DNA of 64,000 nucleotides, taken from contig JBFMEU010000002.1 of NCBI GenBank assembly GCA_040753155.1, positions 5,633 through 69,632 on the forward strand, given 5' to 3'. The position numbers and the translations under genes are program-made. A model generated the notes under the pieces. That model ran no database searches, had not been told where the DNA came from, and worked only from the letters and a program-made list of their open reading frames with translations. The first letter of the stretch is position 1. Each line of letters starts with the position of its first letter. Shown here in pieces: positions 442 to 62,097 of this stretch. This DNA is from Bacillota bacterium. GTDB taxonomy: Bacteria > Bacillota > Desulfotomaculia > Desulfotomaculales > JBFMEU01.

Positions 442-890
442 CAGGTATTCAGAATTCATAATTCAGGAGTCAGGAGTCAGGAGTCAGGAGAAAGAGTGTG
501 GAGTGTGGAGTGTGGAGTGTGGAGTGTGGAGTGTGGAGTGTGGAGTGTGGAGTGTGGAGTGTGGAGTGTGGAGTGTGGAGTGTGGAGTGTGGAGTGTGGA
601 GTGTGGAGTCGATCAGAATTAAGCGCTATAAGTTTCTGACGGAAACAAAGAAAGAGTTTGCTTTGTCAAAGCAGTTGCTGCGAAGCGGAACAAGCATTGG
701 ATCAAATCTTGCTGAAGCAGAATGCAGCATCAGTCGAGAGAATTTTTTGGCAAAGGTATATATTGCATTGAAAGAATCTGCTGAGAGCTTGTATTGGCTT
801 GAACTGTTGCACGAAACAGAATATATGAGTGATACGGAATTTCACACTCCCCACTCCACACTCCCCACTCCACACTCCACACTCCACAAA
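442..890 (+). repeat. H element copy H1: GGAGTCA-heptamer terminus, then inverted GTGTGGA/TCCACAC heptamer arrays enclosing a four-helix-bundle gene fragment
   Basis: caggtattcagaattc...(aggagtc)x4 at 442-490. (GTGTGGA)x~16 at 496-608. Imperfect inverse array (tccacac/tccccac) at 844-887. Confidence 0.8.
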
Positions 891-920
891 AATGTTGCTT
901 TTTCCCCTATCCCCAAGTAA
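498..920 (+). CDS. Four-helix-bundle protein (23S rRNA intervening-sequence protein family), lacking helix 1; N- and C-termini encoded by heptamer arrays
   Basis: The core FALSKQLLRSGTSIGSNLAEAECSISRENFLAKVYIALKESAESLYWLELL matches the helix 2-4 pattern of this family. The N-terminus is (ECGVWSV)n translated from the repeat. It may be a decayed copy. Confidence 0.5.
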   Translation: MECGVWSVECGVWSVECGVWSVECGVWSVECGVWSVESIRIKRYKFLTETKKEFALSKQLLRSGTSIGSNLAEAECSISRENFLAKVYIALKESAESLYWLELLHETEYMSDTEFHTPHSTLPTPHSTLHKNVAFSPIPK

Positions 921-1576: not shown

Positions 1577-1591
1577 ATGGAAAAATATTGG

Positions 1592-1796
1592 GTTACTATT
1601 CAGGTATTCAGAATTCAGGAGTCAGGAGTCAGAATGCCCTGAGAATATGCTTCCAGCAATTAGAGAAGTTTTGTTTCGTAAATATCACCGTATCCAAGAT
1701 CCTTCGTAAGTATCAAGTAATATCAGCATTCTTCAACAGAACCTTGGTTTTCTCATTCTGACTCCTGACTTTGGCTCCTGACTCCTGAGTAGTTAC
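1592..1796 (-). repeat. H element copy H2 (internally deleted; keeps start codon region and 3' end of the four-helix-bundle gene)
   Basis: gttactattcaggtattcagaattcaggagtcaggagtcagaatg ... ttttctcattctgactcctgac...ctgactcctgagtagttac. Nearly identical to H11 in reverse orientation. Confidence 0.85.
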
Positions 1797-2244: not shown

Positions 2245-2300
2245 TTGGAAGTATATTCTCGGGGCATTCTGACTCCTGACTCCTGAATTCTGAATACCTA
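2245..2300 (+). repeat. H element fragment H3 (3' terminus only)
   Basis: ttggaagtatattctcggggcattctgactcctgactcctgaattctgaatacc equals the 3' end of the H consensus. Confidence 0.8.
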
Positions 2301-10814: not shown

Positions 10815-10849
10815 ACAAAGCATTAAAAATTCCGGATTGCTGTCCGGGT

Positions 10850-10911
10850 GAGTCAATGGGGACGGTTCCGGGTGACTCACGAGAGTCACCCGGAACCGTC
10901 CCCATTGACTC
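10850..10911. repeat. D palindrome D1
   Basis: gagtcaatggggacggttccgggtgactc-acgag-agtcacccggaaccgtccccattgactc. Confidence 0.9.
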
Positions 10912-10925
10912 AAAGGCTTACGTTT

Positions 10926-11169
10926 TCAATTTTGATACTTGCTCCAAAACCTCGGCCCAGGTATTGGGCTCCACCATGCGCAGGCGCCTGTCCCTGATCC
11001 GGTAATCCACCCCCGGAATAGCTTTTTTATACAGTACGCCGGGGCCGTTACCTTTACCAGACGGTACAGCCCCAGGACATTGCGGGGCCCCAGATTGCTG
11101 TCCACCTCGGAGGAATAAATCCAGATCAGCCGGGGCAGTTTGACGACGGTGGAGGGGGTGAGCAAGTTA
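10926..11169 (-). pseudogene. Truncated, frameshifted duplicate of the 3' end of the LCP-like gene at 13106-13879
   Basis: Roughly 85-90% nucleotide identity, by eye, to 13106-13345. The similarity stops exactly at the A2 junction (gagcaagtt|agccc). Confidence 0.8.
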
Positions 11170-11285
11170 GCCCTTTGAAACCCGCATCTGTAGGCGGCGG
11201 GTTTCAAAGGGCGGTTAAGTCCAGTATGGACTCGGCTAACATTCAGAGGGGGTTGAATCCCTCTCTGAATGAAGTCTCGTTCAAC
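11170..11285 (+). mobile_element. A element copy A2 (5'-truncated)
   Basis: ...gggcggttaagtccagtatggactcggctaacattcagagggggttgaatccctctctgaatgaagtctcgttcaac, directly followed by H-element sequence catggcgtttccgaag. Confidence 0.8.
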
Positions 11286-11345
11286 CATGGCGTTTCCGAA
11301 GTATGAGATATACGGTCCATTCTGACTCCTGACTCCTGAGTACCT
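11286..11345 (+). repeat. H element fragment H4
   Basis: catggcgtttccgaagtatgagatatacggtccattctgactcctgactcctgagtacc. Confidence 0.8.
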
Positions 11346-11443
11346 TCTGCGCGGAGTACTGGAGTGAGCGGTGATAACGCAGTGCCATAACACCGGTTTC
11401 ACTGAATGTATACTAAATATAAATATTGTGAAGGAATCTGAAG

Positions 11444-12862: not shown

Positions 12863-12997
12863 TTTATCACTGAACTAATCCGCCCTAAGACCCCCGCCTC
12901 TGTAGGCGGCGGGTTTCAAAGGGCGGTTAAGTCCAGTATGGACTCGGCTAACATTCAGAGGGGGTTGAATCCCCCTCTGAATGAAGTCTCGTTCAAC
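12863..12997 (+). mobile_element. A element copy A3 (full length)
   Basis: TTTATC-actgaactaatccgccctaagaccc...ggcggttaagtccagtatggactcggctaacATTCAGAGGGGGttgaatCCCCCTCTGAATgaagtctcGTTCAAC. Confidence 0.85.
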
Positions 12998-13105
12998 CCC
13001 AGCGCCCGTCTTCACGCGCGGTAATCTCGGAATGACAAGAAGTACACAAAGCCCTGAGATTGTCGTCATCGTTCGTGCCGCCTGGCGTCTTCCTTTTAAT
13101 ATATA

Positions 13106-16595: not shown

Positions 16596-16597
<2 letters not shown>
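16395..16597 (+). CDS. PspC-domain membrane protein
   Basis: RLTRSSYNRMIAGVCGGLGEYFGLDPTVVRVGYIVF. ATG 16395 follows gtgggag; the ORF track starts at 16319. Confidence 0.8.
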
Positions 16598-16832
<235 letters not shown>

Positions 16833-18684: not shown

Positions 18685-21030
18685 TTACCTCCTTGGTGTG
18701 CCGGGTGTAGTTTTCACCTCTCCCAGGCGCCTTTCCAGGCGCCCCAATTCAGCCAGGCAGGCAGTTGTTTTTTGGCCGGCCGGCCTTTGTTCCAGCGCCT
18801 CCCGGAGATCTTTAAGCACTCCGGCCAGGGGCGCGGCCAGTTGTGAACCGGCTGCAAGCCGGATTGCCTCAATCAGGTGACGGAAGTCCTTGTCCCGGGG
18901 ATTTACGGATGCCCGGCGGGCCGAGAGGAAGAATAACCGCTCGTCGGCGCGGAGTGTGGTCGGGGATAGGCTCTCCCGGATGTAGTTCCTGACTTTTTCC
19001 CTTTCCCGGGGGCTCAGGGTGTCAGCAAAATTGATCACCAGCATGAGCCGGGCCGGGCCCTGCTGCAGGCTGCCGCCGCCCGGCCCCTGCCGGATTAGCC
19101 GGCTCAGGGCCGGCAGTTGGTCCCGGTCGGCGGTGTTCAGCACGTGCCTGGCGTTTAAGAAAAACAATACTGACTGGTCCCCCTTGTTGAACGAGATTTC
19201 ATTCAGAGGGGGATTCAATCCCCTCTGAATGTTAGCCGGGTCCATACTGGACTTAACCGCCCTTTGAAACCAGCTGCCTGCAGAGGCCGGGGTCTTAGGG
19301 CGGATTAGTTCAGTGATAAAACTTGAGGTTGTTTCCCGGTGCCTGCGGTGAACCGAGTCCAGGCCCGGTGTGTCAATCAGGACCAGGCCGCTCAGCAGTT
19401 CCGAGGGATGGGTGATTTCAACCCGGCTCAGCCGGAAGCTGTCCGGCCAGGCCAGGTGGCGTACGAGGGCCAGTTTGCCGGCGGCGGTATCCAGGCTCAG
19501 GGTTAAGGTATTTTCCTCCCGGAAGGTAACCTGGACGGCAACCGGCAAATCGGCGGTTATTCTTGTGGCCGGAACCGCCTGAAACAGGGTGGGCGCCGTG
19601 TTTAGCCCCGGCTGCCCGGCCAGGCCGGCGGCAAAGAGCCGGGCGGCGCTGTGGAGTTGATTCAGCAGTTGGTATTTACTTACCTTCTTGCGGCCGGCCT
19701 GGCTAATCAGCTCCAGACGGCCCAGCTCAGGCCCGGACTCCGGCTTCCCCAGCCAGCCGGTAAGAGCCTTGACTTCCTCCCGGCAGTACAGGGCCGCTTC
19801 TCCGTCCAGATGGATAACCGGCACGTCAATCTGCAGCGGATAGTGGAGGGTGGCCTGTTTAACCTGACCCTGCCTGACCCGGGTCAGGCAGGAGGTGGTG
19901 GGGCCGTCTCCGGTGGGCAGGATTTCCTCACCCAGCATGACGTTGATAAAAGTTGTCTTGCCGGAGGAAAAGCCCCCGGCTATAGTCACTGGAAATGCCC
20001 CTTGCTCCAGCCGGCGCCTCAGGGCGTCAGCTTGCCCGGTGGCCGGCAGGCCGGTCATTGAAGGGTCGGCGCAGAACCGGTCCAGCAGCTCCAGCAGGGA
20101 CCGCCTTACCTGGATCAGGCCCTTATTGGCCTGGTCCGGGTGGGCCGGCGGCTGATATTTCAGCCGGCCCTCCCGGGCCGGGCCGCTCAGGTTGCGGCGG
20201 GCGGCAATTCTGGCCCCGGCCCGGGACTGCAGGAGTTCCCCGGCCTGTAAAATTGAGGCCGCCCTTTGCTTGAGGTCCCATAAATCAGCCAGGAACTCCA
20301 GGTCGCCGGGCCGGGCCAGGGTGGTCTTCAGGGCTTTGGGGATAGCCTCGTCCATAGTCCGCAAATTCCGGTTGAGTTCCTCAATCCGGCGGGCGGCTGC
20401 CTCCACTTCCAGCAGGGTGCGCAGGGAGTTTACAGCTGCAGGGTTGGTAATGTCAATGGCCAAGGGCTGCAAGCCGGCTTTGAAAATTTGCCGCAGGCAG
20501 GCTGCGGTAACCCCCGGGGCAGAGTCGTCCGGATGGCCGGTGTTATGATTCAAGATGAAAATAATGTCCCGGGGATTAATTTGGCGCCGCCGGGCCAGTT
20601 CCTCCAGAAACTGCTTGCCGGCATTATCAAGGCCCCGCTGGTGCAAAAGGAAGAGCGCCAAATCGGCGCCGGCCGCCGCCTCCATGGCGGCCGCCCGGTG
20701 CTCCGGGCTGGTGTCGAAGCCAGGTGTGTCCAAGAGCAGGCACTTTTGCAGCAGCCTGCAGGGCAGAGCCACCTCCCGTACCCTCCGGGCGCGGGCCGGG
20801 CCGGAGACGGCGGGGCCATAAACATACTTGACAGTCACCATGGTGGTGGGAACCACATCCACTGGTGCGACATAATTTTCCAGCAGGGCGTTAATTAAAG
20901 TGGATTTGCCGGCGTTATAGGGGCCGGCAACAGCCACCGTCGGCAGGCGGACTCCGGCAGGCCAGTTCTCCAGCAGCATGTCCGCCTGGCGAATAAAGTT
21001 TTCTGCCGCCGTCATGGTATATACCTCCAA
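18685..21030 (-). CDS. Tandem-GTPase dynamin-like protein (BDLP/DynA-like), carrying an in-frame A-element insertion
   Basis: Module 1: G1 GPYNAGKST and G3 DTPGFD. Module 2: G1 GGFSSGKTT, G2 region PTGDGPTTSCLT, G3 DTPGLDS and NFAD. 781 aa. Confidence 0.75.
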   Translation of the reverse strand: MEVYTMTAAENFIRQADMLLENWPAGVRLPTVAVAGPYNAGKSTLINALLENYVAPVDVVPTTMVTVKYVYGPAVSGPARARRVREVALPCRLLQKCLLLDTPGFDTSPEHRAAAMEAAAGADLALFLLHQRGLDNAGKQFLEELARRRQINPRDIIFILNHNTGHPDDSAPGVTAACLRQIFKAGLQPLAIDITNPAAVNSLRTLLEVEAAARRIEELNRNLRTMDEAIPKALKTTLARPGDLEFLADLWDLKQRAASILQAGELLQSRAGARIAARRNLSGPAREGRLKYQPPAHPDQANKGLIQVRRSLLELLDRFCADPSMTGLPATGQADALRRRLEQGAFPVTIAGGFSSGKTTFINVMLGEEILPTGDGPTTSCLTRVRQGQVKQATLHYPLQIDVPVIHLDGEAALYCREEVKALTGWLGKPESGPELGRLELISQAGRKKVSKYQLLNQLHSAARLFAAGLAGQPGLNTAPTLFQAVPATRITADLPVAVQVTFREENTLTLSLDTAAGKLALVRHLAWPDSFRLSRVEITHPSELLSGLVLIDTPGLDSVHRRHRETTSSFITELIRPKTPASAGSWFQRAVKSSMDPANIQRGLNPPLNEISFNKGDQSVLFFLNARHVLNTADRDQLPALSRLIRQGPGGGSLQQGPARLMLVINFADTLSPREREKVRNYIRESLSPTTLRADERLFFLSARRASVNPRDKDFRHLIEAIRLAAGSQLAAPLAGVLKDLREALEQRPAGQKTTACLAELGRLERRLGEVKTTPGTPRR
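19186..19320 (-). mobile_element. A element copy A4, inserted in frame (135 nt = 45 codons) in the dynamin-like gene
   Basis: gttgaacgagatttcATTCAGAGGGGGattcaatCCCCTCTGAAT...ggcggattagttcagtGATAAA. It is translated as ...LIRPKTPASAGSWFQRAVKSSMDPANIQRGLNPPLNEISF... Confidence 0.85.
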
Positions 21031-21241: not shown

Positions 21242-21335
21242 TGGTTTTTTGTGTGTCAGCACCGGGAATAGGCCGGTGCTATTGCTCCTGCAATTTCCTT
21301 ATGCTATAATAACTAAGTGTGTAAAACCATAGCCT

Positions 21336-21474
21336 ATAAAGAAGACTTGGTTCAGGTGGAGTTTTAACCCATACGTTGGGGACATTCCTGTCCTCAGAGA
21401 AATACCCAAGCTTCAGCAGGTGTGTCCCCTTTCCTTATGCGAGGGCGGGGTCTTACAGGCTGTGCGAAGATAAA
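21336..21474 (+). repeat. C element copy C1
   Basis: ataaaGAAGACTTGGTTCAGgtggagttttaacccatacgttGGGGACAttcctgtcctcagagaaatacccaagcttcagcaggtgTGTCCCCtttccttatgcgagggcggggtCTTACAGGCTGTGCGAAGATAAAg. Confidence 0.85.
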
Positions 21475-22870: not shown

Positions 22871-23767
22871 ATGGCCAGCCAAGATAGTAGGCGTAGTGTT
22901 GGCGGTCTTTTGGCCGCAGCCCGGGCTTACCTGAGGGAATGTGGCTCGGAGAGCCCCGGCCTTGATGCCGAGGTGCTTCTGGCCCACTGCCTGGGGGCCG
23001 GCCGGCTGGATCTGTACCGGGCGCCGGACCGGATCCCGGACAGCGGCCAGGCTTCCGGGTACCTGGATTTGATTGCCAGGCGCGGCCGGGGGGAACCGGT
23101 GGCCTATCTGACCGGACATAAGGAGTTTATGGGGCTCGACCTGGCGGTCGGGCCTCCTGTGCTGATTCCCCGCCCGGAAACCGAGCTGCTGGTGGAGCAG
23201 GCCCTGGAACTGCTGGGCTTATCCCTGGCGGAAAGACCGGGCGGCCGGCTGGCGGTGGATGTGGGCGCCGGCAGCGGGGCCATTGCTGTCAGCCTGGCGG
23301 TTTTTATGCCCCGGGTGCGGGTGCTGGCCACCGATATATCCGGGGAGGCCCTGGCCGTGGCCCGCCGCAATGCGGCCCGCCACGGGGTGGCAAGGCAGGT
23401 TTCCTTTTTTCAGGGAGACTTGCTGACCCCTCTGACTATACCCGCCCTGCAGGGGCAGGTGGACCTGGTGGCCGCCAACCTGCCCTACATCCCGGCCGGT
23501 GACCTGGAGGCTTTGCCCCGGGATGTCCGGGCCTACGAGCCCCGGCTGGCCCTGAACGGCGGTCCTGACGGCCTGTCCCTCTACCGCCGGCTGGTGCCCG
23601 ATGCCGGCAGGCTGCTGCGGCCCGGCGGCTTTTTGCTGATGGAGATTGGCCCCGGCCAGGGGCGGGCCTGCCTGGGCCTGGTACCGGCCCCCGTCTGGGA
23701 GAGTGTGCTGCTGCCCGACCTGGCCGGGCGGGAGCGTCTGGTGGTGGCAGTTAAAATGAGTCAATAG
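22871..23767 (+). CDS. prmC: Release-factor glutamine N5-methyltransferase
   Basis: VDVGAGSGAIAV SAM motif and the NPPY-type motif (here ANLPYIP). Immediately follows prfA. Confidence 0.88.
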   Translation: MASQDSRRSVGGLLAAARAYLRECGSESPGLDAEVLLAHCLGAGRLDLYRAPDRIPDSGQASGYLDLIARRGRGEPVAYLTGHKEFMGLDLAVGPPVLIPRPETELLVEQALELLGLSLAERPGGRLAVDVGAGSGAIAVSLAVFMPRVRVLATDISGEALAVARRNAARHGVARQVSFFQGDLLTPLTIPALQGQVDLVAANLPYIPAGDLEALPRDVRAYEPRLALNGGPDGLSLYRRLVPDAGRLLRPGGFLLMEIGPGQGRACLGLVPAPVWESVLLPDLAGRERLVVAVKMSQ

Positions 23768-23818
23768 GGACGGTTCCTGGTGACTCGCGCGAGTCACCCG
23801 AAACCGTCCCTATTGACT
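23759..23818. repeat. D palindrome D2, overlapping both convergent stop codons
   Basis: agtcaatagggacggttcctggtgactcgcgcgagtcacccgaaaccgtccctattgact. Confidence 0.9.
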
Positions 23819-24527: not shown

Positions 24528-24756
24528 GATAAAGAAGACTTGGTTCAGGTGGGGTTTTAACCCATACGTTGGGGACATTCCTCCGAAGGAGGTGTGTCCC
24601 CTACCCGCTAAACCTTAGTCGCACTTATTTCGAGCTTACAGCCTGTTAATCCCATTAGTTGGGGACATTCCTGTCCTCAGAGAAATACCCAAGCTTCAGC
24701 AGGTGTGTCCCCTTTCCTTATGCGGTGGCGGGGTCTTACAGGCTGTGCGAAGATAA
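24528..24756 (+). repeat. C element copy C2 (double-module version)
   Basis: Module 1 contains GGGGACAttcctccgaaggaggtgTGTCCCC. An internal cttacagcctgt then leads to module 2, GGGGACAttcctgtcctcag...caggtgTGTCCCC. Ends cttacaggctgtgcgaaGATAAA. Confidence 0.85.
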
Positions 24757-24757
24757 A

Positions 24758-27252: not shown

Positions 27253-28131
27253 GTGGATTACATGTTTGAGTACGAGTTTATGGTCCGGGCCATGCTTGCC
27301 GGCCTGGTGGCCGGCATAATTTGCCCCGCGGTAGGGGTTTTCGTGGTTATGCGGCGCTATTCCTTTATGGCCGATACCCTGGCCCATGTTTCCCTGGCCG
27401 GGGTGGCGGCGGGCGCCCTGCTGGGCGTATATCCCGCCGTTACCACCCTTGGCTTTGCCATGGCCGCCGCCACAGTCATTGAGAAGCTGCGCTCCGGGCC
27501 AAGGCTGTACGGCGAGGCCGTGCTGGCGCTGATGATGAGCGGCGGTCTGGCCCTGGCCGTGGTGCTGATCAGCCTGTCCCGGGGCATGAGCATTGACATC
27601 TTCGGCTATCTTTTTGGCAGCGTCCTTACCGTCGGCCCGGGTGACCTGTGGCTGATCGCCGGCCTGGGCTGCGCTGTTCTGGCCGTGATAATATTATTCT
27701 ACAAGGAGCTCTACTACATATCCTTTGATGAAGAGGCAGCCCGGGTGGCCGGCCTGCCGGTGGATCGTTTGAATTTTATCTTTGTGCTGCTGGTGGCGGT
27801 TACCGTGGCGGTCTCCATGCGCATTGTGGGGACCCTGCTGGTCAGCGCCCTGATGGTGATTCCCGTGCTCACCGCCCTGCTGGTGGCCGGCAGCTTCCGC
27901 AGCGCCTTCATAACCGCCGTATTCCTGGGAGTGGTATCAGTTGCCCTGGGGCTTACCGGCTCATACTACCTGGGCATTGCCGCCGGCGGCGCCGTAGTCC
28001 TTACCGCCCTGGTCTTTTTCGTCCTTACCCTGAGCGGCAAACAGCTGCGCCAGGCCTGGCAGCGCCGCCTGTTGGCCCCGGGCGCCCCGAAAAAGGTGAA
28101 AGAGGAACTGGTAACAGGGGATGGCTCTTGA
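27253..28131 (+). CDS. znuB: Zinc ABC transporter permease
   Basis: 292 aa, polytopic, ABC-3 family pattern (FDEEAARVAGLPV). Confidence 0.88.
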   Translation: MDYMFEYEFMVRAMLAGLVAGIICPAVGVFVVMRRYSFMADTLAHVSLAGVAAGALLGVYPAVTTLGFAMAAATVIEKLRSGPRLYGEAVLALMMSGGLALAVVLISLSRGMSIDIFGYLFGSVLTVGPGDLWLIAGLGCAVLAVIILFYKELYYISFDEEAARVAGLPVDRLNFIFVLLVAVTVAVSMRIVGTLLVSALMVIPVLTALLVAGSFRSAFITAVFLGVVSVALGLTGSYYLGIAAGGAVVLTALVFFVLTLSGKQLRQAWQRRLLAPGAPKKVKEELVTGDGS

Positions 28132-28191
28132 GTCAAGGGGGACGGTTCCTGGCGACTCACGTGAGTCGCCAGGAACCGTCCCCCTTGACTC
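28130..28191. repeat. D palindrome D3 (perfect 31+31 nt), overlapping the znuB stop codon
   Basis: gagtcaagggggacggttcctggcgactcac|gtgagtcgccaggaaccgtcccccttgactc. Confidence 0.95.
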
Positions 28192-31033: not shown

Positions 31034-31099
31034 CTGGAGGAAACCCGCGGTTTGTGTAGAACTGAATTCCGTAGGGATTTGGAACAACAACTCCGGCGT

Positions 31100-31246
31100 C
31101 TTACAGGCTGTACGAAGATAAAGAAGACTTGGTTCAGGGGGGGGTTTAACCCATACGTTGGGGACATTCCTCCGAAGGAGGTGTGTCTCCTATCCGCTAA
31201 ACCTTAGTCGCACTTATTTCGAGTTTACAGCTTGTACGAAGATAAA
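31100..31246 (+). repeat. C element copy C3 (module 1 bounded by two copies of the 23-nt end sequence)
   Basis: cttacaggctgtacgaagataaa-gaagacttggttcag...GGGGACAttcctccgaaggaggtgTGTCTCC...tcgcacttatttcgag-tttacagcttgtacgaagataaa. Confidence 0.85.
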
Positions 31247-33073: not shown

Positions 33074-33721
33074 TTACGTGAAGTGTTGAAAAAGTGCTTT
33101 GTCATATTTCTGGGTTGTACTCAAAATGTAGATGTCATAATAATTTCTTGGGCGTGTGCTGAATATGCTACGGTTTAGAATCGTCTCGACTTTCTCTGCC
33201 ATAACTGTTTCAATATTGTAGCCCCAGAGACGGATACGGACAGATTCGTCAAAAATACCGCTGAATTCATAGGGAACAGCGGACGGCGTCATCACATCCC
33301 CGGCAGAAATATCAATGGAAAGCGGCGTTACGATAGTGTCATACACGGCATTCATTCTCACACGAAATCCGCCGTAGCGGTCATCCTTACGGATGGGGAT
33401 GACGGAGACGACATTAAATTTCACATCATCATTTAAGTTAATACTGCAGATGCTTTGAACCGCTTGTGTTATCTGCCCTTCCGTCAGGGGCAGATCGCGC
33501 AGCGTAGCGTCCAGATCCATGGTCGAGCGGGTATCCAAACCCACGATGGCCGCAACAAGCATTCCGCCCTTAATTATGAATTTTTCCTGATATTCTGATT
33601 TGGACAGACGCTCCAAAAAGCGTTCGAACATGTAGTTCTGCAAAACTACCTGAGCCGCAATGTTATTCTATTTTGCATAGCGGTTGATGCGACCTTTCAG
33701 GCTTATGGCCTTGGAACTCAT
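33074..33721 (-). pseudogene. AbiEii/AbiGii-family nucleotidyltransferase toxin, with premature in-frame TAG and probably C-terminally short; no AbiEi partner
   Basis: MSSKAISLKGRINRYAK*NNIAAQVVLQNYMFERFLERLSKSEYQEKFIIKGGML... The TAG is at 33668-33670. An A element abuts the start codon. Confidence 0.7.
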
Positions 33722-33732
33722 AGTAGTACATC

Positions 33733-33850
33733 TCCGCCCTAAGACCCCCGCCTCTGTAGGCGGCGGGTTTCAAAGGGCGGTTAAGTCCAGTATGAACTCG
33801 GCTAACATTCAAAGGGGGTTGAATCCCCCTCTGAATGAAGTCTCGTTCAA
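33733..33850 (+). mobile_element. A element copy A5 (5'-truncated); contains the stop codon of the MCP gene
   Basis: ccgccctaagacccccgcctctgtaggcggcgggtttcaaagggcggttaagtccagtatgaactcggctaacattcaaagggggttgaatccccctctgaatgaagtctcgttcaa. Confidence 0.8.
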
Positions 33851-35457
33851 GAACTTACACGAAACCTGTCTATCTGGCTTTTAATGCTGCCGGCCAGATT
33901 GTCAAGCTCTCCGGCCAGTGAAGATAACATATCCACCGAGCAAACGTAGTCCGGTACGGTCTTCGCTCCCCCGGTCCCCGTAAGAGTCTCTACGGTCGCC
34001 GCCACTTCTTTTATGCCTTTTTTGATATGCCCGGAGGCATCGGCTATTTCATTTATTCTTTCGCCGGTGTCCTTTATTCCGCCGTATATTTCCTTGATCA
34101 AAAACCTTGCCTCGTCCGCCGCCCCCGACCCTTCCCGGGCTACCTCGTAACCTCTTTCCAGTATTATTTTAACATTTTCACTTTCTTTTAAGACTAGCTG
34201 TGCTATTCCGGCGATCTCCCCGCTGGCTGCGGACGACTGGCCGGCCAGTTTCCTCACCTCTTCGGCCACCACAGTGAATCCCAGTCCGTTTTCTCCGGCC
34301 CTTGCCGCCTCTATGGACGCGTTTAACGCCAGAAGGTTGGTCTGGCTGGCTATGGTTTTCACCTGTTCCACTATTTCGAAAACCGTTCTGATGAGGCTGT
34401 GCAGATTATTAATAGATCTGACGCCCTCAATGGTCAGATCGTGACTTTCGTTCATCTTGTTCATAAGCTTCTCCAGTCGAATCCTGCTTTTTTCGGATAT
34501 ATCCATCAGATTTTGACTGGATGCATCTGTCTCTTCTATGCTGTCTGATATTTTTCCGATGGATTCTTCCATCTTTTTCACTGCCCAGCCGGTATCCCTC
34601 ATAAGATAAGTCTGTCTCTCGGCCACCTGGCCAAGCTGCCGGCTGGTGTCGGTCAGCGTGCTGACCGTTGTCTGGGATCCCTTAATAAGGGTTTCCAGTC
34701 CGGAAAGCATTTTATTTAGGCTTCCGCCGATCTTTTCCATCTCGTTGCCGGCGTTTTTATCCTCCACCCTTGTTGAAAGGTCACCCCCACCGGCCCTGTT
34801 CATAACGGCAATCAGGTTTTCCAGAGGCCCGGCCATCCTCCTGGCGCCCAGGCAGCAAATCATAAATGCCGCAAGCACGGAACTTATGCCGACAAGAAAA
34901 GAAATGTGCCTCAGCCGGTAAACCGGATCAAGGTAATCATCCTCCGCCAAGCCTACAACGTAAAGCCAGTTTTTAGCCGGAATGACTTCATAAGCTATGG
35001 TGTTTTTACCGTCGCCGGTGTCTTTGCTGAAAAGGCCGTCTTTATTATTAAATAGATCCCTTATTTCCTCTTTGGTCAGTTGGATTTCCATACCTTCGGA
35101 CAGCATGACACTGCCATCCATGTCGTAAACTTGAATGCCGGCCCGTATGTTTTTATCCCGGAAACCATTGTTTTCATTATTGATATATACCTGCGCGTAA
35201 TTCAATAGCTGTCTGCTGTCGTAGGTATTTGCCATCATGGCAATATTTTCTCCGGCATGCTTGGCCGAGACCGCTATTCTTTCCTCCATTAACTCTTTCA
35301 GGTTTTGCTTGCCCGTGTTGTAAACCGCGAATCCCAGGCTGCCAACCGCTGTCACTATCACGAGAGTGAAAAGCGCAAGCAGTTTATACTGTATTCCCAG
35401 TTTATGCCATGATAGAAAAAGAGAAACTTTCCGGCCGAATGTTTTAATTCTTTGCAC
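33847..35457 (-). CDS. Methyl-accepting chemotaxis protein (N-terminal TM, extracellular sensor, HAMP, signalling domain)
   Basis: ASQTNLLALNASIEAARAGENGLGFTVVAEEVRKLA is the highly conserved MCP hairpin tip. 536 aa. Confidence 0.9.
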   Translation of the reverse strand: MQRIKTFGRKVSLFLSWHKLGIQYKLLALFTLVIVTAVGSLGFAVYNTGKQNLKELMEERIAVSAKHAGENIAMMANTYDSRQLLNYAQVYINNENNGFRDKNIRAGIQVYDMDGSVMLSEGMEIQLTKEEIRDLFNNKDGLFSKDTGDGKNTIAYEVIPAKNWLYVVGLAEDDYLDPVYRLRHISFLVGISSVLAAFMICCLGARRMAGPLENLIAVMNRAGGGDLSTRVEDKNAGNEMEKIGGSLNKMLSGLETLIKGSQTTVSTLTDTSRQLGQVAERQTYLMRDTGWAVKKMEESIGKISDSIEETDASSQNLMDISEKSRIRLEKLMNKMNESHDLTIEGVRSINNLHSLIRTVFEIVEQVKTIASQTNLLALNASIEAARAGENGLGFTVVAEEVRKLAGQSSAASGEIAGIAQLVLKESENVKIILERGYEVAREGSGAADEARFLIKEIYGGIKDTGERINEIADASGHIKKGIKEVAATVETLTGTGGAKTVPDYVCSVDMLSSLAGELDNLAGSIKSQIDRFRVSS

Positions 35458-35682: not shown

Positions 35683-36043
35683 TCAGAAGTCAGAAGTCAG
35701 AAGTCAGAAGTCAGGAGTCAGGAGTCAGGAGTCAGAATGAGAAAACCAGCGAAAACATCTGAAGATTTACTGGTATGGCGGAAGTCTTAATAGGCGCCTG
35801 TTTGCACTTGCGGTTCAACGTTTATCACTGAACTAATCCGCCCTAAGACCCCCGCCTCTGTAGGCGGCGGGTTTCAAAGGGCGGTTAAGTCCAGTATGGA
35901 CTCGGCTAACATTCAGAGGGGGTTGAATCCCCCTCTGAATGAAGTCTCGTTCAACCATTGCAAGAGGTTAGTAAATTGCTGGAAGCATATTCTCGGGGCA
36001 TTCTGAATCCTGACTTCTGAATTCTGAATACCTGAATAGTAAC
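35683..36043 (+). repeat. H element copy H8, interrupted by A element A6
   Basis: (agaagtc/aggagtc) array, then agaatgagaaaaccagcgaaaacatctgaagat...cttgcggttcaacgTTTATC[A6]cattgcaagagg...ggaagcatattctcggggcattctgaatcctgacttctgaattctgaatacctgaatagtaac. Confidence 0.9.
35821..35955 (+). mobile_element. A element copy A6 (full length, nested in H8)
   Basis: tttatcactgaactaatccgccctaagaccc...ctctgaatgaagtctcgttcaac. Same sequence as A3. Confidence 0.9.
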
Positions 36044-36190: not shown

Positions 36191-36284
36191 ATAAAGAAGA
36201 CTTGGTTCAGGCGGGGTTTTAACCCATACGTTGGGGACATTCCTTATGCGAGGGCGGGGTCTTACAGGCTGTGCGAAGATGAAA
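36191..36284 (+). repeat. C element copy C4 (short recombinant form)
   Basis: ataaagaagacttggttcaggcggggttttaacccatacgttggggacattcct|tatgcgagggcggggtcttacaggctgtgcgaagatgaaa. Confidence 0.8.
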
Positions 36285-37392: not shown

Positions 37393-37673
37393 CGGAGGTT
37401 GGAAGTTAGAGGTTGGAAGTTGGAAAAGAGTAAAAGGCTCATAATTGGAGCTTTGTTGCAGAAAACCGCTCTAATTCTAATTGTTGGCGTATTAAGCCTG
37501 AAAATGACGTTTTTAAGTGTATACCTACTTTGATATAATTAAGAGCAAACTTGGAGGTTATTATTTTAAAAAAAACATATACTATAGGTATGATGCAGTA
37601 TGGCCAGCCTGCGGGAGTGGGCAGAGGTGCGGGGTAAGTCCATAGGGCGCCTGTGACACAACGGTCATACTGA

Positions 37674-40574: not shown

Positions 40575-40729
40575 AGAAGACTTGGTTCAGTCGTACTTAT
40601 TTCGAGTTTACAGCCTGTTAATCCCATTAGTTGGGGACATTCCTGTCCCCAGAGAAATACCCAAGCTTCAGCAGGTGTGGCCCCTTTCCTTATGCGAGGG
40701 CGGGATCTTACAGGCTGTGCGAAGATAAA
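40571..40729 (+). repeat. C element copy C5 (inside the atp operon, between atpI and atpB)
   Basis: ataaagaagacttggttcag|tcgtacttatttcgagtttacagcctgt-taatcccattagttGGGGACAttcctgtcc...caggtgTGGCCCC...cttacaggctgtgcgaagataaa. The atpI stop lies in the left junction. Confidence 0.85.
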
Positions 40730-54247: not shown

Positions 54248-54448
54248 GTTATTATTCAGGTATTCAGAATTCAGGAGTCAGGATTCAGAATGGACCGTAT
54301 AGCTCATACTTCGGAAACGCCATGGTTGAACGATAAACGGCAAGTACGAACAGGCGCGCCTTCTGCCATGCCAGTAAATCTTCAAATGTTTTCGCTGGTT
54401 TTCTCATTCTGACTCCTGACTTCTGACTCCTGACTCCTGAGTAGTTAC
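54248..54448 (-). repeat. H element copy H9 (40-codon ORF remnant with the apparently ancestral VYRST codons)
   Basis: The reverse complement encodes MRKPAKTFEDLLAWQKARLFVLAVYRSTMAFPKYELYGPF*. Arms are ctcaggagtcaggagtcagaagtcaggagtcagaatg and cattctgaatcctgactcctgaattctgaatacctgaataataac. Confidence 0.9.
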
Positions 54449-56137: not shown

Positions 56138-56312
56138 GCCTTCTAGTGAGCAGTGGGCAGTATTTCCCGCTATTTTTTTATTGTATTGTTCTTGCTCATA
56201 ACTTACAATGTTTGTGGTTGGAAAGGTTGCGATGATTTAATTGTATATATTCAGTGAAACCGGTGTTAAGGCACTGCGGTATCACCGCTCGCTCCAGTGC
56301 TCCGCGCAGAAG

Positions 56313-56425
<113 letters not shown>

Positions 56426-56667: not shown

Positions 56668-56880
56668 GTAACTACTCAGGAGTCAGAAGTCAGAAGTCAG
56701 AAGTCAGGAGTCAGAATGAGAAAACCAAGGTTCTGTTGAAGAATGCCGATATTACTTGATGCTTACGAAGGATCTTGGATACGGTGATATTTACGAAACA
56801 AAACTTCTCTAATTGCTGGAAGCATATTCTCGGGTCATTCTGAATACTGACTCCTGAATTCTGAATACCTGAATAGTAAC
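56668..56880 (+). repeat. H element copy H11 (internally deleted, same deletion type as H2)
   Basis: gtaactactc(aggagtc/agaagtc)x4agaatgagaaaaccaaggttctgttgaagaatgccgat...ggaagcatattctcgggtcattctgaatactgactcctgaattctgaatacctgaatagtaac. Confidence 0.9.
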
Positions 56881-56913
56881 CAATAGGATGCTATTGTATT
56901 CAAGAACAAAGGG

Positions 56914-61203: not shown

Positions 61204-62097
61204 TTAATTTAGTTCCGCCTTTAGCGTACGAATGGTCTCTTGGTCCAAGCCGGTGATTTCAGCAACCAGTTCTTCCGGCAAGCCCTTTTTCAGGGCCGCC
61301 CTGGCGGTATCCAGCCGTCCTTCTTTAATGCCTTCTTTAATGCCTTCTTTAATGCCTTCCTTAATACCTTCTTTAATGCCTTCCTTAATACCTTCTTTAA
61401 TGCCTTCTTCCCTGATCCACTGTTCGATCTGGGTCATTCTCAACACCTCCAGGAGCCTTTTTTTGTAGTTTTCGGACATGAAACGGTCGGTCACGGCCAC
61501 CAGCGCGCCGATGACGAATGTTTTAAATTCCCCTTCCATGTTCTTTGCCAGTTCGGCCGCCTGGATCGCCATCTCTTCTTCGGTAAAACTGCTTTTCATC
61601 AGGGGCAGGAAGATCAGCTTTAATATTTCTTCTTCGTTAAGCGGCTCTTTCTTTTCGATCTTTTCGTGCAGTTTGCGGTATTCTTCGTCTCCGTTATATT
61701 CTTTCATGTAGACGTTGGTTACTTTGTAGGAGATGGAGCCTCTTGCCAGGCTGTCCGGAGCTTTTTCGATCCTTCCGGAGTAAACCACGGCGGTGTTCAC
61801 ATCCCGGTAGTCTTTGTTGATCAGCCTGGCGTCGTAAAGGGCAAAGCGCTTTAACGCTTCTCCGGCAACCTTGGTCATAAACTCCAGGTGCAAAAGGGTG
61901 TTGTCTTCAAGCAGGAAGATATAGTCGGTCCGGTTTTCTTTTATTTCCACAACGGGCAGGACAGTGGGGATCACTGCCGTTATCCTGGGGGTGTTCAGGC
62001 CGAATATCTTCAGTGTTCTGTCCTTGAATATTTCGACCACTGCTTTCATGATAACGTCGTTTGCCTGCCTGGTTACCTCCGCTTCCAATACCAGCAC
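61204..62097 (-). CDS. Rpn-family recombination-promoting nuclease / putative transposase (PD-(D/E)xK, YhgA-like)
   Basis: DVIMKAVVEIFKDRTLKIFGL...EIKENRTDYIFLLEDNTLLHLEFM fits the Rpn/YhgA core pattern. The C-terminal part has the (EGIK)n repeat. Confidence 0.65.
   Translation of the reverse strand: MLVLEAEVTRQANDVIMKAVVEIFKDRTLKIFGLNTPRITAVIPTVLPVVEIKENRTDYIFLLEDNTLLHLEFMTKVAGEALKRFALYDARLINKDYRDVNTAVVYSGRIEKAPDSLARGSISYKVTNVYMKEYNGDEEYRKLHEKIEKKEPLNEEEILKLIFLPLMKSSFTEEEMAIQAAELAKNMEGEFKTFVIGALVAVTDRFMSENYKKRLLEVLRMTQIEQWIREEGIKEGIKEGIKEGIKEGIKEGIKEGIKEGRLDTARAALKKGLPEELVAEITGLDQETIRTLKAELN
61321..61408. repeat. 12-nt tandem repeat (ttctttaatgcc/ttccttaatacc, ~7 units) encoding (EGIK)n in the Rpn gene
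   Basis: The repeat is read directly from the sequence. The translation is REEGIKEGIKEGIKEGIKEGIKEGIKEGIKEGR. Confidence 0.9.

Follow-up and report, generated by a model that had tools for sequence, protein, structure and literature searches.

Inverted heptamer arrays around four-helix-bundle genes, and a probable decayed mobile cassette in the proB-nadD spacer of a Bacillota bacterium

The window, by which is meant the whole 64,000-nucleotide stretch of DNA analysed here, is part of a metagenome-assembled contig of a Bacillota bacterium (JBFMEU010000002.1), and close to its start the spacer between proB and nadD contains a fragment of a gene for a four-helix-bundle (4HB) protein that is enclosed by two tandem arrays of a seven-nucleotide unit (heptamer), one the inverse of the other. 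The genes around the spacer are of the housekeeping kind (proB, nadD, a gene for an RRM protein, rsfS, and leuS), and heptamer units begin 1 nt after proB. Tandem Repeats Finder reports a left array of 16.6 GAGTGTG units with 100% matches and a score of 232, and a right array of 6.6 CACACTC units with 89% matches, which places the GTGTGGA array and its imperfect inverse exactly where a preliminary description, made from the letters of the window, had put them. Searching for a two-unit GTGTGGA pattern (GTGTGGAGTGTGGA) with at most two mismatches gives 21 matches, 15 on the plus strand and six on the minus strand, all of them inside these two arrays; shuffled sequence gives a mean of 0.30, and none of 100 shuffles reaches 21. 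The locus is the only one with GTGTGGA arrays in the window, and since the contig is metagenome-assembled the exact copy number of its perfect 116-nt microsatellite is insecure. Upstream of the left array lie 4.0 perfectly matching units of a related-looking heptamer, TCAGGAG (463-490), and just before this run degenerate ATTCAGA units at 447-466. The minimum free energy fold of the RNA from 442 to 900 pairs the left array with the right one (z = -6.95), and from the dot-bracket notation the predicted stem between the two arms is about 50 bp long. A scan of positions 1-2600 against Rfam found no RNA family and no rRNA, with one chance-level match only, and a promoter and terminator scan found nothing promoter-like or terminator-like inside the arrays and the gene fragment between them.

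An open reading frame (ORF) of 140 aa with a GTG start extends from 498 to 920 through both arrays and reads MECGVWSVECGVWS...HTPHSTLPTPHSTLHKNVAFSPIPK. The preliminary description had drawn attention to this frame and to the repeat peptides it encodes; frame and peptides are present, yet the openness is automatic and uninformative, because GTGTGGA, TCCACAC, and TCCCCAC include a stop codon in none of their three frames. ORFs through the arrays occur three times on the plus strand, each starting in the left array, and twice on the minus strand, where they cross the right array, and such ORFs are no evidence of coding. The public annotation begins the product at GTG 603, past the left array (P0001). 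The assignment to the 4HB family is upheld by profile scores above the cut-offs for both PF05635 (66.1 bits versus 33.8, E = 3.9e-18, profile positions 23-92 of 106) and TIGR02436 (72.2 bits versus 24, E = 3.7e-20, profile positions 16-89 of 109). The domain is incomplete with respect to the four-helix form of about 110 residues: both ends are deleted in comparison with relatives of 123 and 129 aa, and about 16 N-terminal and 28 C-terminal codons are missing. The annotated coding sequence is best taken as a pseudogene fragment, and this copy is non-functional.

The nearest full-length relatives are encoded by Methylomusa anaerophila (123 aa, 91% identical) and by a metagenome-assembled genome (MAG) of the Eubacteriales (129 aa, 89% identical). 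Homology to the relatives' loci L120 and L122 runs from CGATCAGAAT to GGAATTTCA, and the arrays of the window abut both break points. At the DNA level the core (612-845) is 91.7% and 94.7% identical over 228 nt to the genes of Methylomusa and the Eubacteriales MAG, and it has 39% GC where the window has 55.5%. This 92-95% DNA identity and the deviating composition fit a recent acquisition of the core by horizontal transfer. In the two intact genes short degenerate heptamers ending in ...GGAGTGTGGAG(T/C)TATG stand before the ATG, and inverse units follow the gene (AACTCTCAACTCTC... in one, ...AACTCCACACTAA in the other); these arrays belong to the same heptamer family and abut the start and the stop codon. 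The homologous genes being flanked by GTGTGGA-family heptamers, the arrays are therefore an inherited trait of this gene lineage. In many further homologues the protein ends in a tail such as NSTLHSPHSTL, which is the translated 3' array. A full-length relative (P0003, 91% identical) matches PDB entry 2RLD with E = 8e-35, a structure with five identical chains.

The history of the spacer can be read from a syntenic uncultured relative (L207), in which NadD is 82% identical and the gene order obg-proB-nadD-RRM-rsfS is the same. Its proB-nadD spacer is 75 nt long and empty, and no period-7 array occurs anywhere in the 8.6 kb of that locus. The relative's spacer reads ...TGActaaatcattaaaatGGAGAAAG|ATGTTGCTTTTTCC..., that is, ...aatGGAGAAAG|ATGTTGCTTTTTCC. 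In the window the TAA of proB is followed by one additional block, caggtattcag...(GGAGTCA)n, then by GGAGAAAG, then by a second block that opens with AGTGTGGAG, includes the 4HB fragment, and closes with CTCCACAAAA, and finally by ATGTTGCTTTTTCC. The junctions GGAGAAAG|AGTGTGGAG and CTCCACAAAA|ATGTTGC thus stand opposite the uninterrupted GGAGAAAG|ATGTTGC of the relative, and the comparison therefore identifies 495-891 as a 397-nt insertion. The first block, of 45 nt, takes the place of 15 unrelated nucleotides of the relative and is a solo terminus of a second heptamer family, GGAGTCA; it is the gene-distal type of end in reverse orientation (CAGGTATTCAGAATTCATAATTCAGG, then GGAGTCA units) and is devoid of the outer GTTACTATT. 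The arrays had been described as nested; with a single GGAGTCA arm at the locus, the empty site resolves them into two separate events on either side of GGAGAAAG. The features of the locus and the other members of the GGAGTCA family discussed below are listed in Table 1.

Table 1. Coordinates (window numbering) of the proB-nadD locus and of GGAGTCA-family elements
Feature	Position	Strand	Remarks
GGAGTCA-family solo terminus	442..486	-	aligns with the termini of the complete copies 1591-1796 and 54248-54448
Ancestral spacer GGAGAAAG between the two insertions	487..494	.	from comparison with relative L207
Left arm	494..609	+	perfect GTGTGGA array, 16.6 units; in the register of GGAGTCA the unit is GGAGTGT
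397-nt insertion, 4HB cassette remnant bounded by GTGTGGA arrays	495..891	+	empty site in the relative
Annotated coding sequence, "four helix bundle protein", 105 aa	603..920	+	NCBI record P0001, 100% identical
4HB gene fragment	610..842	+	TIGR02436 profile positions 16-89 of 109
Right arm	843..888	+	imperfect inverse array TCCACAC/TCCCCAC, 6.6 units
Complete GGAGTCA-family element resembling a miniature inverted-repeat transposable element, nadD-RRM spacer	1591..1796	-	8-bp duplication AAATATTG at 1583-1590 and 1797-1804
Partial GGAGTCA-family element (3' interior and TGACTCC arm), RRM-rsfS spacer	2246..2299	+	
GGAGTCA-family element with 40-codon N-terminal remnant MRKPAKTFEDLLVWQKAH...	16597..16832	+	
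GGAGTCA-family element	54248..54448	-	8-bp target duplication GATATTTG/GATACTTG
GGAGTCA-family element (N-terminal 4 codons and C-terminal remnant)	56668..56880	+	8-bp duplication CAATAGGA

The arrangement seen in the window is not peculiar to it. From 80 metagenome loci with relatives (54-73% identical), 59 non-redundant loci with complete flanks were compared with 590 control windows. A period of 7 is the best period, with a score of at least 10, in 81% of the upstream and 69% of the downstream flanks but in only 1% of controls, and other periods reach that score in 5%. Arrays are present on both sides at 49 loci, and at 35 of these (71%) the two arms are reverse complements of each other at a distance of 0-1, against 12.5% when partners are mismatched; a direct-repeat relation between the arms is rare (8 of 49). 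The preliminary description had proposed that the arrays are tied to the element and do not stand beside it by chance, and both comparisons bear this out. Upstream, 27 classes of heptamer can be distinguished, among them AATTAGG, AGTTAGG, AAAGTTC, TTAGAGT, GACAATT, and GTTCGGA, and the distance between heptamers rises with protein divergence. Each arm is 31 nt long at the median, with only a moderate correlation between the lengths of the two (rho = 0.44). At 19 of 45 loci no more than 5 nt separate the end of the upstream array from the ATG, and at 24 of 40 the downstream array touches or overlaps the stop codon; stop triplets are present in 24 of 45 downstream arms (26% expected), and at least five of the seven positions of the upstream arm are purines at 30 of 45 loci. 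The upstream neighbour is co-directional at 40 of the 49 loci, and the array mostly starts about 30 nt or less past its stop codon. Direct repeats of 7-8 nt exactly outside the arrays of full-length cassettes were found at L152 (ATAAAGGA), L171 (AAAAACA), and L190 (CAATAAA); direct repeats of at least 7 nt occur in three of 33 full-length cassettes against a null expectation of 1.8%, a modest excess only. Mismatches between arms comprise 14 G-U, 22 A-C, and 45 others (G-U versus A-C, p = 0.24). The protein itself is well conserved, with 31 invariant columns and a mean column identity of 60% among 35 sequences. Judged from these comparisons, almost all sampled genes of this 4HB family appear to lie between matching inverted heptamer runs.

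The rule extends to more distant homologues (37-50% identical) on plasmids of named Cyanobacteria and Chloroflexota, where a period of 7 is best on both flanks in six of six cases. For example, the flanking heptamers are GTCGGAG/CGACCTC on pNPUN01 and ATTCGCA/TTGCGAA on pNPUN02 of Nostoc punctiforme, AATCCCC plus AATCGTA/CGATTTA and GGATTTA in Planktothrix, TTTTAGA/TCTAAAA in Gloeocapsa, and ATGAAGG/TTCATAA in Chlorohelix. On plasmid pANACY.01 of Anabaena cylindrica the 4HB gene lies between cas2 and cas1, and the upstream period-7 signal is weak. The neighbours at several plasmid and MAG loci are restriction-modification, helicase, or HEPN genes, and 4HB cassettes recur in defence or mobile-DNA operons of Anabaena cylindrica (L211), Planktothrix (L212), Gloeocapsa (L213), Chlorohelix (L214), and the Eubacteriales MAG (L122); examples from this set are a cassette with a DUF1156 protein on one side and a Swt1 HEPN protein on the other, one that separates a helicase from an N6 methylase, and one that has a methylase at one end and RhuM with a restriction enzyme at the other. 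Such placement could reflect either tolerated insertion sites or a functional link. Three near-identical metagenome loci (L124, L132, and L133) have an upstream array, before position 1501, that is organized in 21-nt super-units (ATGAGAGTTGAGAGTGGAGTT), and the number and order of these units differ among the three; the length of the array therefore varies between strains. Viral contigs contributed two relatives only, and phages are therefore not obvious vectors.

With regard to the GTGTGGA unit itself, an exact three-unit search with one genome per species returned at least 119 loci from rumen Clostridia, Prevotella, Planctomycetota, Fluviicola, Chloroflexota, and others. Among them are 41 inverted pairs with a median spacing of 138 nt, and in the loci inspected the 5' arm is the one that contains GGAG. 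A hidden Markov model built from 119 relatives found a recognizable 4HB gene of this subfamily at two of the 119 loci listed (L074, from Fluviicola, and L032), so that the search for further arrays of this heptamer beside the gene family, which the preliminary description had called for, does find them. In Fluviicola the 4HB gene is complete and (ACACTCC)x9 stands at its stop codon; the loci with no recognizable gene have short and often palindromic interiors, mostly unrelated ones. By analogy with the GGAGTCA family, the gene-less GTGTGGA loci may be derivative elements, and the scarcity of genes at the arrays is not taken as a refutation because the reverse test, from gene to arrays, is overwhelming.

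The GGAGTCA family supplies a record of transposition. About 11 copies or pieces occur in the 64 kb, and copies within the window are 93-97% identical; the element in the nadD-RRM spacer, for instance, is 97% identical to the copy at 56701-56881, and the relative L207 has at the corresponding site an unoccupied target with a single AAATATTG. Direct duplications of 8 bp flank five of the nine complete copies, namely those of the window given in Table 1 (AAATATTG, GATATTTG/GATACTTG, and CAATAGGA) and two at locus L203 (TGCTATAC and AAATATAC). The 5' half of the element follows the plan GTAACTACTCAGG(AGTCAGG)n AGTCAGA-ATG-AGAAAACC..., after which comes the interior, and the 3' half the plan ...CATTCTGA(ATCCTGACTCC...)CCTGAATAGTAAC; the tips of the terminal inverted repeats are GTWACTAYTCAGG. 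The interior retains either 40 N-terminal codons (MRKPAKTFEDLLVWQKAH...) or a C-terminal piece (...GSVEECRYYLMLTKDLGYGDIYETKLL). Profile NF008911 aligns with interior pieces over its positions 2-34 of 118 (E = 1e-4), and TIGR02436 does so weakly over positions 1-26 and 63-82. When 5.8 billion proteins were searched with the 40-codon remnant for a full-length parent, only fragments of 22-69 aa came up, many of them from the same MAG and from related metagenomes. Look-up of remnant proteins in the source MAG gave no record. With only short remnants found and copies 93-97% identical, it was therefore the deleted form itself that multiplied, and the GGAGTCA elements are transposed deletion derivatives resembling MITEs (miniature inverted-repeat transposable elements). 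The window's gene fragment had been thought to complement the 40-codon remnants by supplying the part of the gene that they lack, a view that has to be given up: BLASTP finds no similarity between the GGAGTCA-family remnants and the GTGTGGA-type protein, the remnants come from a different 4HB subfamily, and the two are complementary in profile coordinates only. The related proposal that one gene family is associated with two unrelated heptamers holds for the association but not for the heptamers, which, set in register, are identical at five of seven positions (GGAGTCA and GGAGTGT).

These observations converge on a small mobile cassette, and with a probability of roughly 80% the segment 495-891 is the decayed remnant of one that was acquired horizontally. 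A complete cassette would consist of one PF05635/TIGR02436 gene of about 120 codons between two inverted heptamer arrays, here GGAGTGT/ACACTCC. It would have inserted 24 nt after the stop codon of proB, in the proB-nadD operon spacer; deletions that started in the arrays and extended into the gene would then have removed both of its ends, and the left array would subsequently have grown by replication slippage to its 16.6 perfect units. The GGAGTCA block beside it would be the solo terminus of the second, related family, which has multiplied here as internally deleted copies. The comparisons show that the arrays form the ends of an inserted element, that insertion of family members duplicates 8 bp of the target, and that cassettes usually follow a co-directional host gene immediately after its stop codon; the two arms remain reverse complements of each other even as the heptamer shifts in step with the protein, and the arrays change in length. 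The cassette would have no promoter of its own, in line with the scan, and would be transcribed as part of the host operon, and by analogy with the elements of 23S rRNA after which the protein family is named ("23S rRNA intervening-sequence protein"), where such cleavage has been demonstrated by experiment, its arms may fold as a long hairpin cleavable by RNase III. The complementarity of the arms could be kept either by one factor recognizing both ends or by template switching between them, whereas slippage would set array length; inheritance of the period of 7 through slippage would be the simplest reading. The left arm, 116 nt long where the median in relatives is 31 nt, is a length outlier and probably a slippage expansion of recent date.

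Several findings weigh against this interpretation. Cassettes hold a single 4HB ORF and no transposase or reverse transcriptase, and neither enzyme is among the top 25 of the 69 Pfam families matched by the window's 44 large ORFs, which are of housekeeping type (leuS, the ATP synthase operon, SHMT, MreB, and RF1). Although the empty site is at hand, no convincing target duplication surrounds 495-891, the flanks being GAAAG on the left and CAAAA on the right. The arms of 116 and 46 nt are too unequal to have been strictly co-maintained. A sense-strand excess of G-U among the arm mismatches is lacking, which gives no pointer to selection on an RNA stem, and a gene of the subfamily was recognized at only two of the 119 GTGTGGA loci listed.

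Among the alternatives, ordinary microsatellites that arose beside the gene by chance and grew by independent slippage are barely credible. A perfect array of 16.6 units is typical of slippage growth, and the correlation of arm lengths is only moderate, but as a general explanation this is already refuted by the frequency of period-7 arrays in gene flanks relative to controls, by the reverse complementarity of arms that belong to the same cassette, and by the plasmid copies, all six of which conform. Scarcely better placed is the idea that the 140-codon ORF is a real gene whose protein carries (ECGVWSV)n and HTPHSTL repeat tails, for which the open frame from 498 to 920 and the array-derived tails of several full-length homologues speak. 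ORF starts inside the array occur in all three frames, the openness follows from the units themselves, the 4HB domain is cut at both ends, the annotation starts downstream of the left array, and in homologues the upstream array precedes the ATG; a coding repeat protein was dismissed. Two further explanations were rejected, a diversity-generating retroelement (DGR), as no reverse transcriptase was seen nearby, and a CRISPR-like array, as there are no spacers and the period is 7.

Two other proposals concern what the arrays do, and both are considered unlikely. The 4HB protein may itself be the specificity factor or catalyst of mobilization, its pentamer binding the heptamers of its own termini, which would explain how the heptamer can differ between cassettes while the arms of one cassette match; in the window the copy would be a dead remnant all the same. 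Inside complete cassettes with target duplications there is no gene other than that of the 4HB protein, the protein is strongly conserved, heptamer distance increases with protein divergence, and the missing sense-strand G-U signature fits constraints at the DNA level; Avd, a relative from DGRs, binds to nucleic acid and to a polymerase. Set against these points, we know of no catalytic motif in the 4HB fold, proteins that are 92-97% identical can have heptamers differing at two to four positions (the mismatch between L134 and L136 may be an artefact of a neighbouring element), and short derivatives have no gene, with no full-length GGAGTCA-family gene found that could act in trans. It is similarly doubtful that the arrays are primarily an expression device at the RNA level, with mobility secondary. 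In such a device the purine-rich 5' arm would offer a Shine-Dalgarno-like GGAG every 7 nt beside the ATG, the 3' arm would provide stop codons and the anti-Shine-Dalgarno strand, and pairing of the arms would govern the translation or the stability of the mRNA from the 4HB gene and from its neighbours. The closeness of upstream arrays to the ATG and of downstream arrays to the stop codon, the surplus of stop triplets and of purines in the respective arms, and the strong predicted hairpin are all in its favour. Many heptamers, however, contain no Shine-Dalgarno-like motif (GACAATT, AAAGTTC, and ATTCGCA), G-U wobbles are not in excess, short derivatives without an ORF retain the arrays, and target duplications mark the arrays as transposon ends.

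The mobile cassette has its closest counterpart in the intervening sequences (IVSs) of 23S rRNA that carry an S23p/PF05635 ORF, as in Leptospira, Coxiella burnetii, Brucella, and Xanthomonas. In these, too, the sole ORF is from this family, complementary termini form a stem round the ORF, as they do in the predicted fold of the window cassette, and the element is considered a selfish one, obtained by horizontal transfer. The Coxiella IVS has tandem heptamers, two to three copies of GACAGAT and one GACAGAA, before the start codon in a strain-variable number, and RNase III cuts at the first heptamer repeat (PMC4990558). The window copy, in contrast, sits in an mRNA operon spacer between proB and nadD and not in helix 25 or 45 of 23S rRNA, and IVSs are not known to have long two-sided arrays, duplicated targets, or derivatives of the MITE kind. 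MITEs and foldback elements, such as the Correia elements of Neisseria, Foldback of Drosophila, and REPIN/RAYT, resemble the present families in their terminal inverted repeats and target duplications (8 bp in the GGAGTCA family), in their many short, internally deleted intergenic copies, and in co-transcription with host genes. The termini of Foldback elements are composed of short tandem repeats in variable number, and Correia hairpins are substrates of RNase III. The cassette differs from these elements in that its full-length form has no recognizable transposase and encodes only a helical protein of about 120 aa, and in that the terminal unit varies freely between related cassettes, with 27 classes in 49 loci. 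Avd, the DGR accessory protein from the same Pfam family, shares the homologous 4HB fold, but no reverse transcriptase or template and variable repeats are found near the window locus, whose neighbours are housekeeping genes.

Intergenic tandem heptamers have also been reported as simple sequence repeats (SSRs), often in convergent inverted pairs 75-115 bp apart. The inverted GGGAATC pairs of Xanthomonas and the GGGGA(C/T)T heptamers of Nostoc were read as G-quadruplex formers, and the Xanthomonas repeats generally showed no association with mobile elements (PMC4692102); AATCCCC, which flanks the Planktothrix 4HB gene, is GGGGATT on the other strand. In Geobacter metallireducens, MTYCTGA repeats entered the literature in 2009 under the name "class 3 global regulator binding sites" (PMC2700814). 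These sites (Gmet_I301-I308 in Additional file 9 of that paper) have the same ATTCTGA/CTCCTGA heptamers as the window's GGAGTCA family and include its ...AGTCAGA-ATG junction; since Geobacter and the Bacillota bacterium of the window share these heptamer elements, the family is not limited to one phylum. Neither PMC4692102 nor PMC2700814 links its heptamers to PF05635 genes, and the short tandemly repeated repetitive (STRR) sequences of cyanobacteria, likewise intergenic tandem heptamers, were reported without a link to a gene. A literature search turned up no publication in which PF05635/S23p genes are connected with inverted heptamer arrays, with target duplications, or with derivatives of the MITE kind, although its coverage is incomplete and an earlier mention is possible. 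The structure of the protein family (2RLD), the IVS with this ORF, and inverted heptamer SSRs were known, and the rule that connects gene and arrays appears to be new.

The class is best regarded as an IVS-like, foldback-type mobile element, of which the window locus would be a decayed member. A wider and more speculative claim is that PF05635 genes constitute an unrecognized class of foldback-like transposons, in which a helical protein of about 120 aa, in place of a canonical transposase, recognizes and mobilizes termini of freely evolving inverted heptamer arrays, and whose decay products are the source of unexplained repeats, that is, of the heptamer SSRs (cyanobacterial STRRs, Xanthomonas GGGAATC, and Geobacter MTYCTGA) and of the 23S IVSs without an ORF; taken jointly, this is put forward tentatively and is rather improbable. 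The locus itself is dead, and its interest lies in a rule that joins IVSs, the excess of heptamer repeats, and the Geobacter "regulator sites". The over-representation of heptamers in bacteria includes the cyanobacterial STRRs that are used in strain fingerprinting. Were cassettes the common source, the function of a very large and structurally solved protein family would become testable, a concrete model for the origin of IVSs would be available, and inverted period-7 arrays round a 120-codon ORF together with 8-bp duplications would serve as an annotation signature for mobile elements that are now annotated merely as "four helix bundle protein".

The window contains several other repeats. 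A third type of heptamer, GAGGTTG/GAAGTTA, forms 4.6 units directly after a stop codon at 37394-37425, with no inverse partner within 300 nt, and may be the solo arm of another cassette. Two 92-nt segments, 11322-11413 and 56243-56334, each composed of a heptamer array and 74 nt of flank, are 95% complementary at a distance of 44.8 kb; an inversion mediated by the elements could have ended at these two points, or they could belong to a further composite repeat. A second dispersed family of 136-147 nt occurs in both orientations with 85-100% identity (2706-2852, 11151-11290, 12863-12998, 19184-19326, 33717-33854, and 35815-35967), one of its copies being located within the GGAGTCA element 35683-36043, and gives a weak Rfam match to sbcD RNA (21 bits, below the 40-bit threshold). 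A third dispersed family consists of modules of 44-141 nt, 70-100% identical and often near GGAGTCA elements (21334-21474, 24528-24757, 31079-31235, 36191-36283, and 40589-40729). At 61319-61409 a 12-nt unit (CCTTCTTTAATG) is repeated 7.6 times with 89% matches and bears no relation to the heptamer elements, and a near-perfect palindrome of 62 nt, TGAGTCAATrGGGACGGTTCC...GGAACCGTCCCyATTGACT, is present three times, at 10849-10910, 23757-23818, and 28129-28190.

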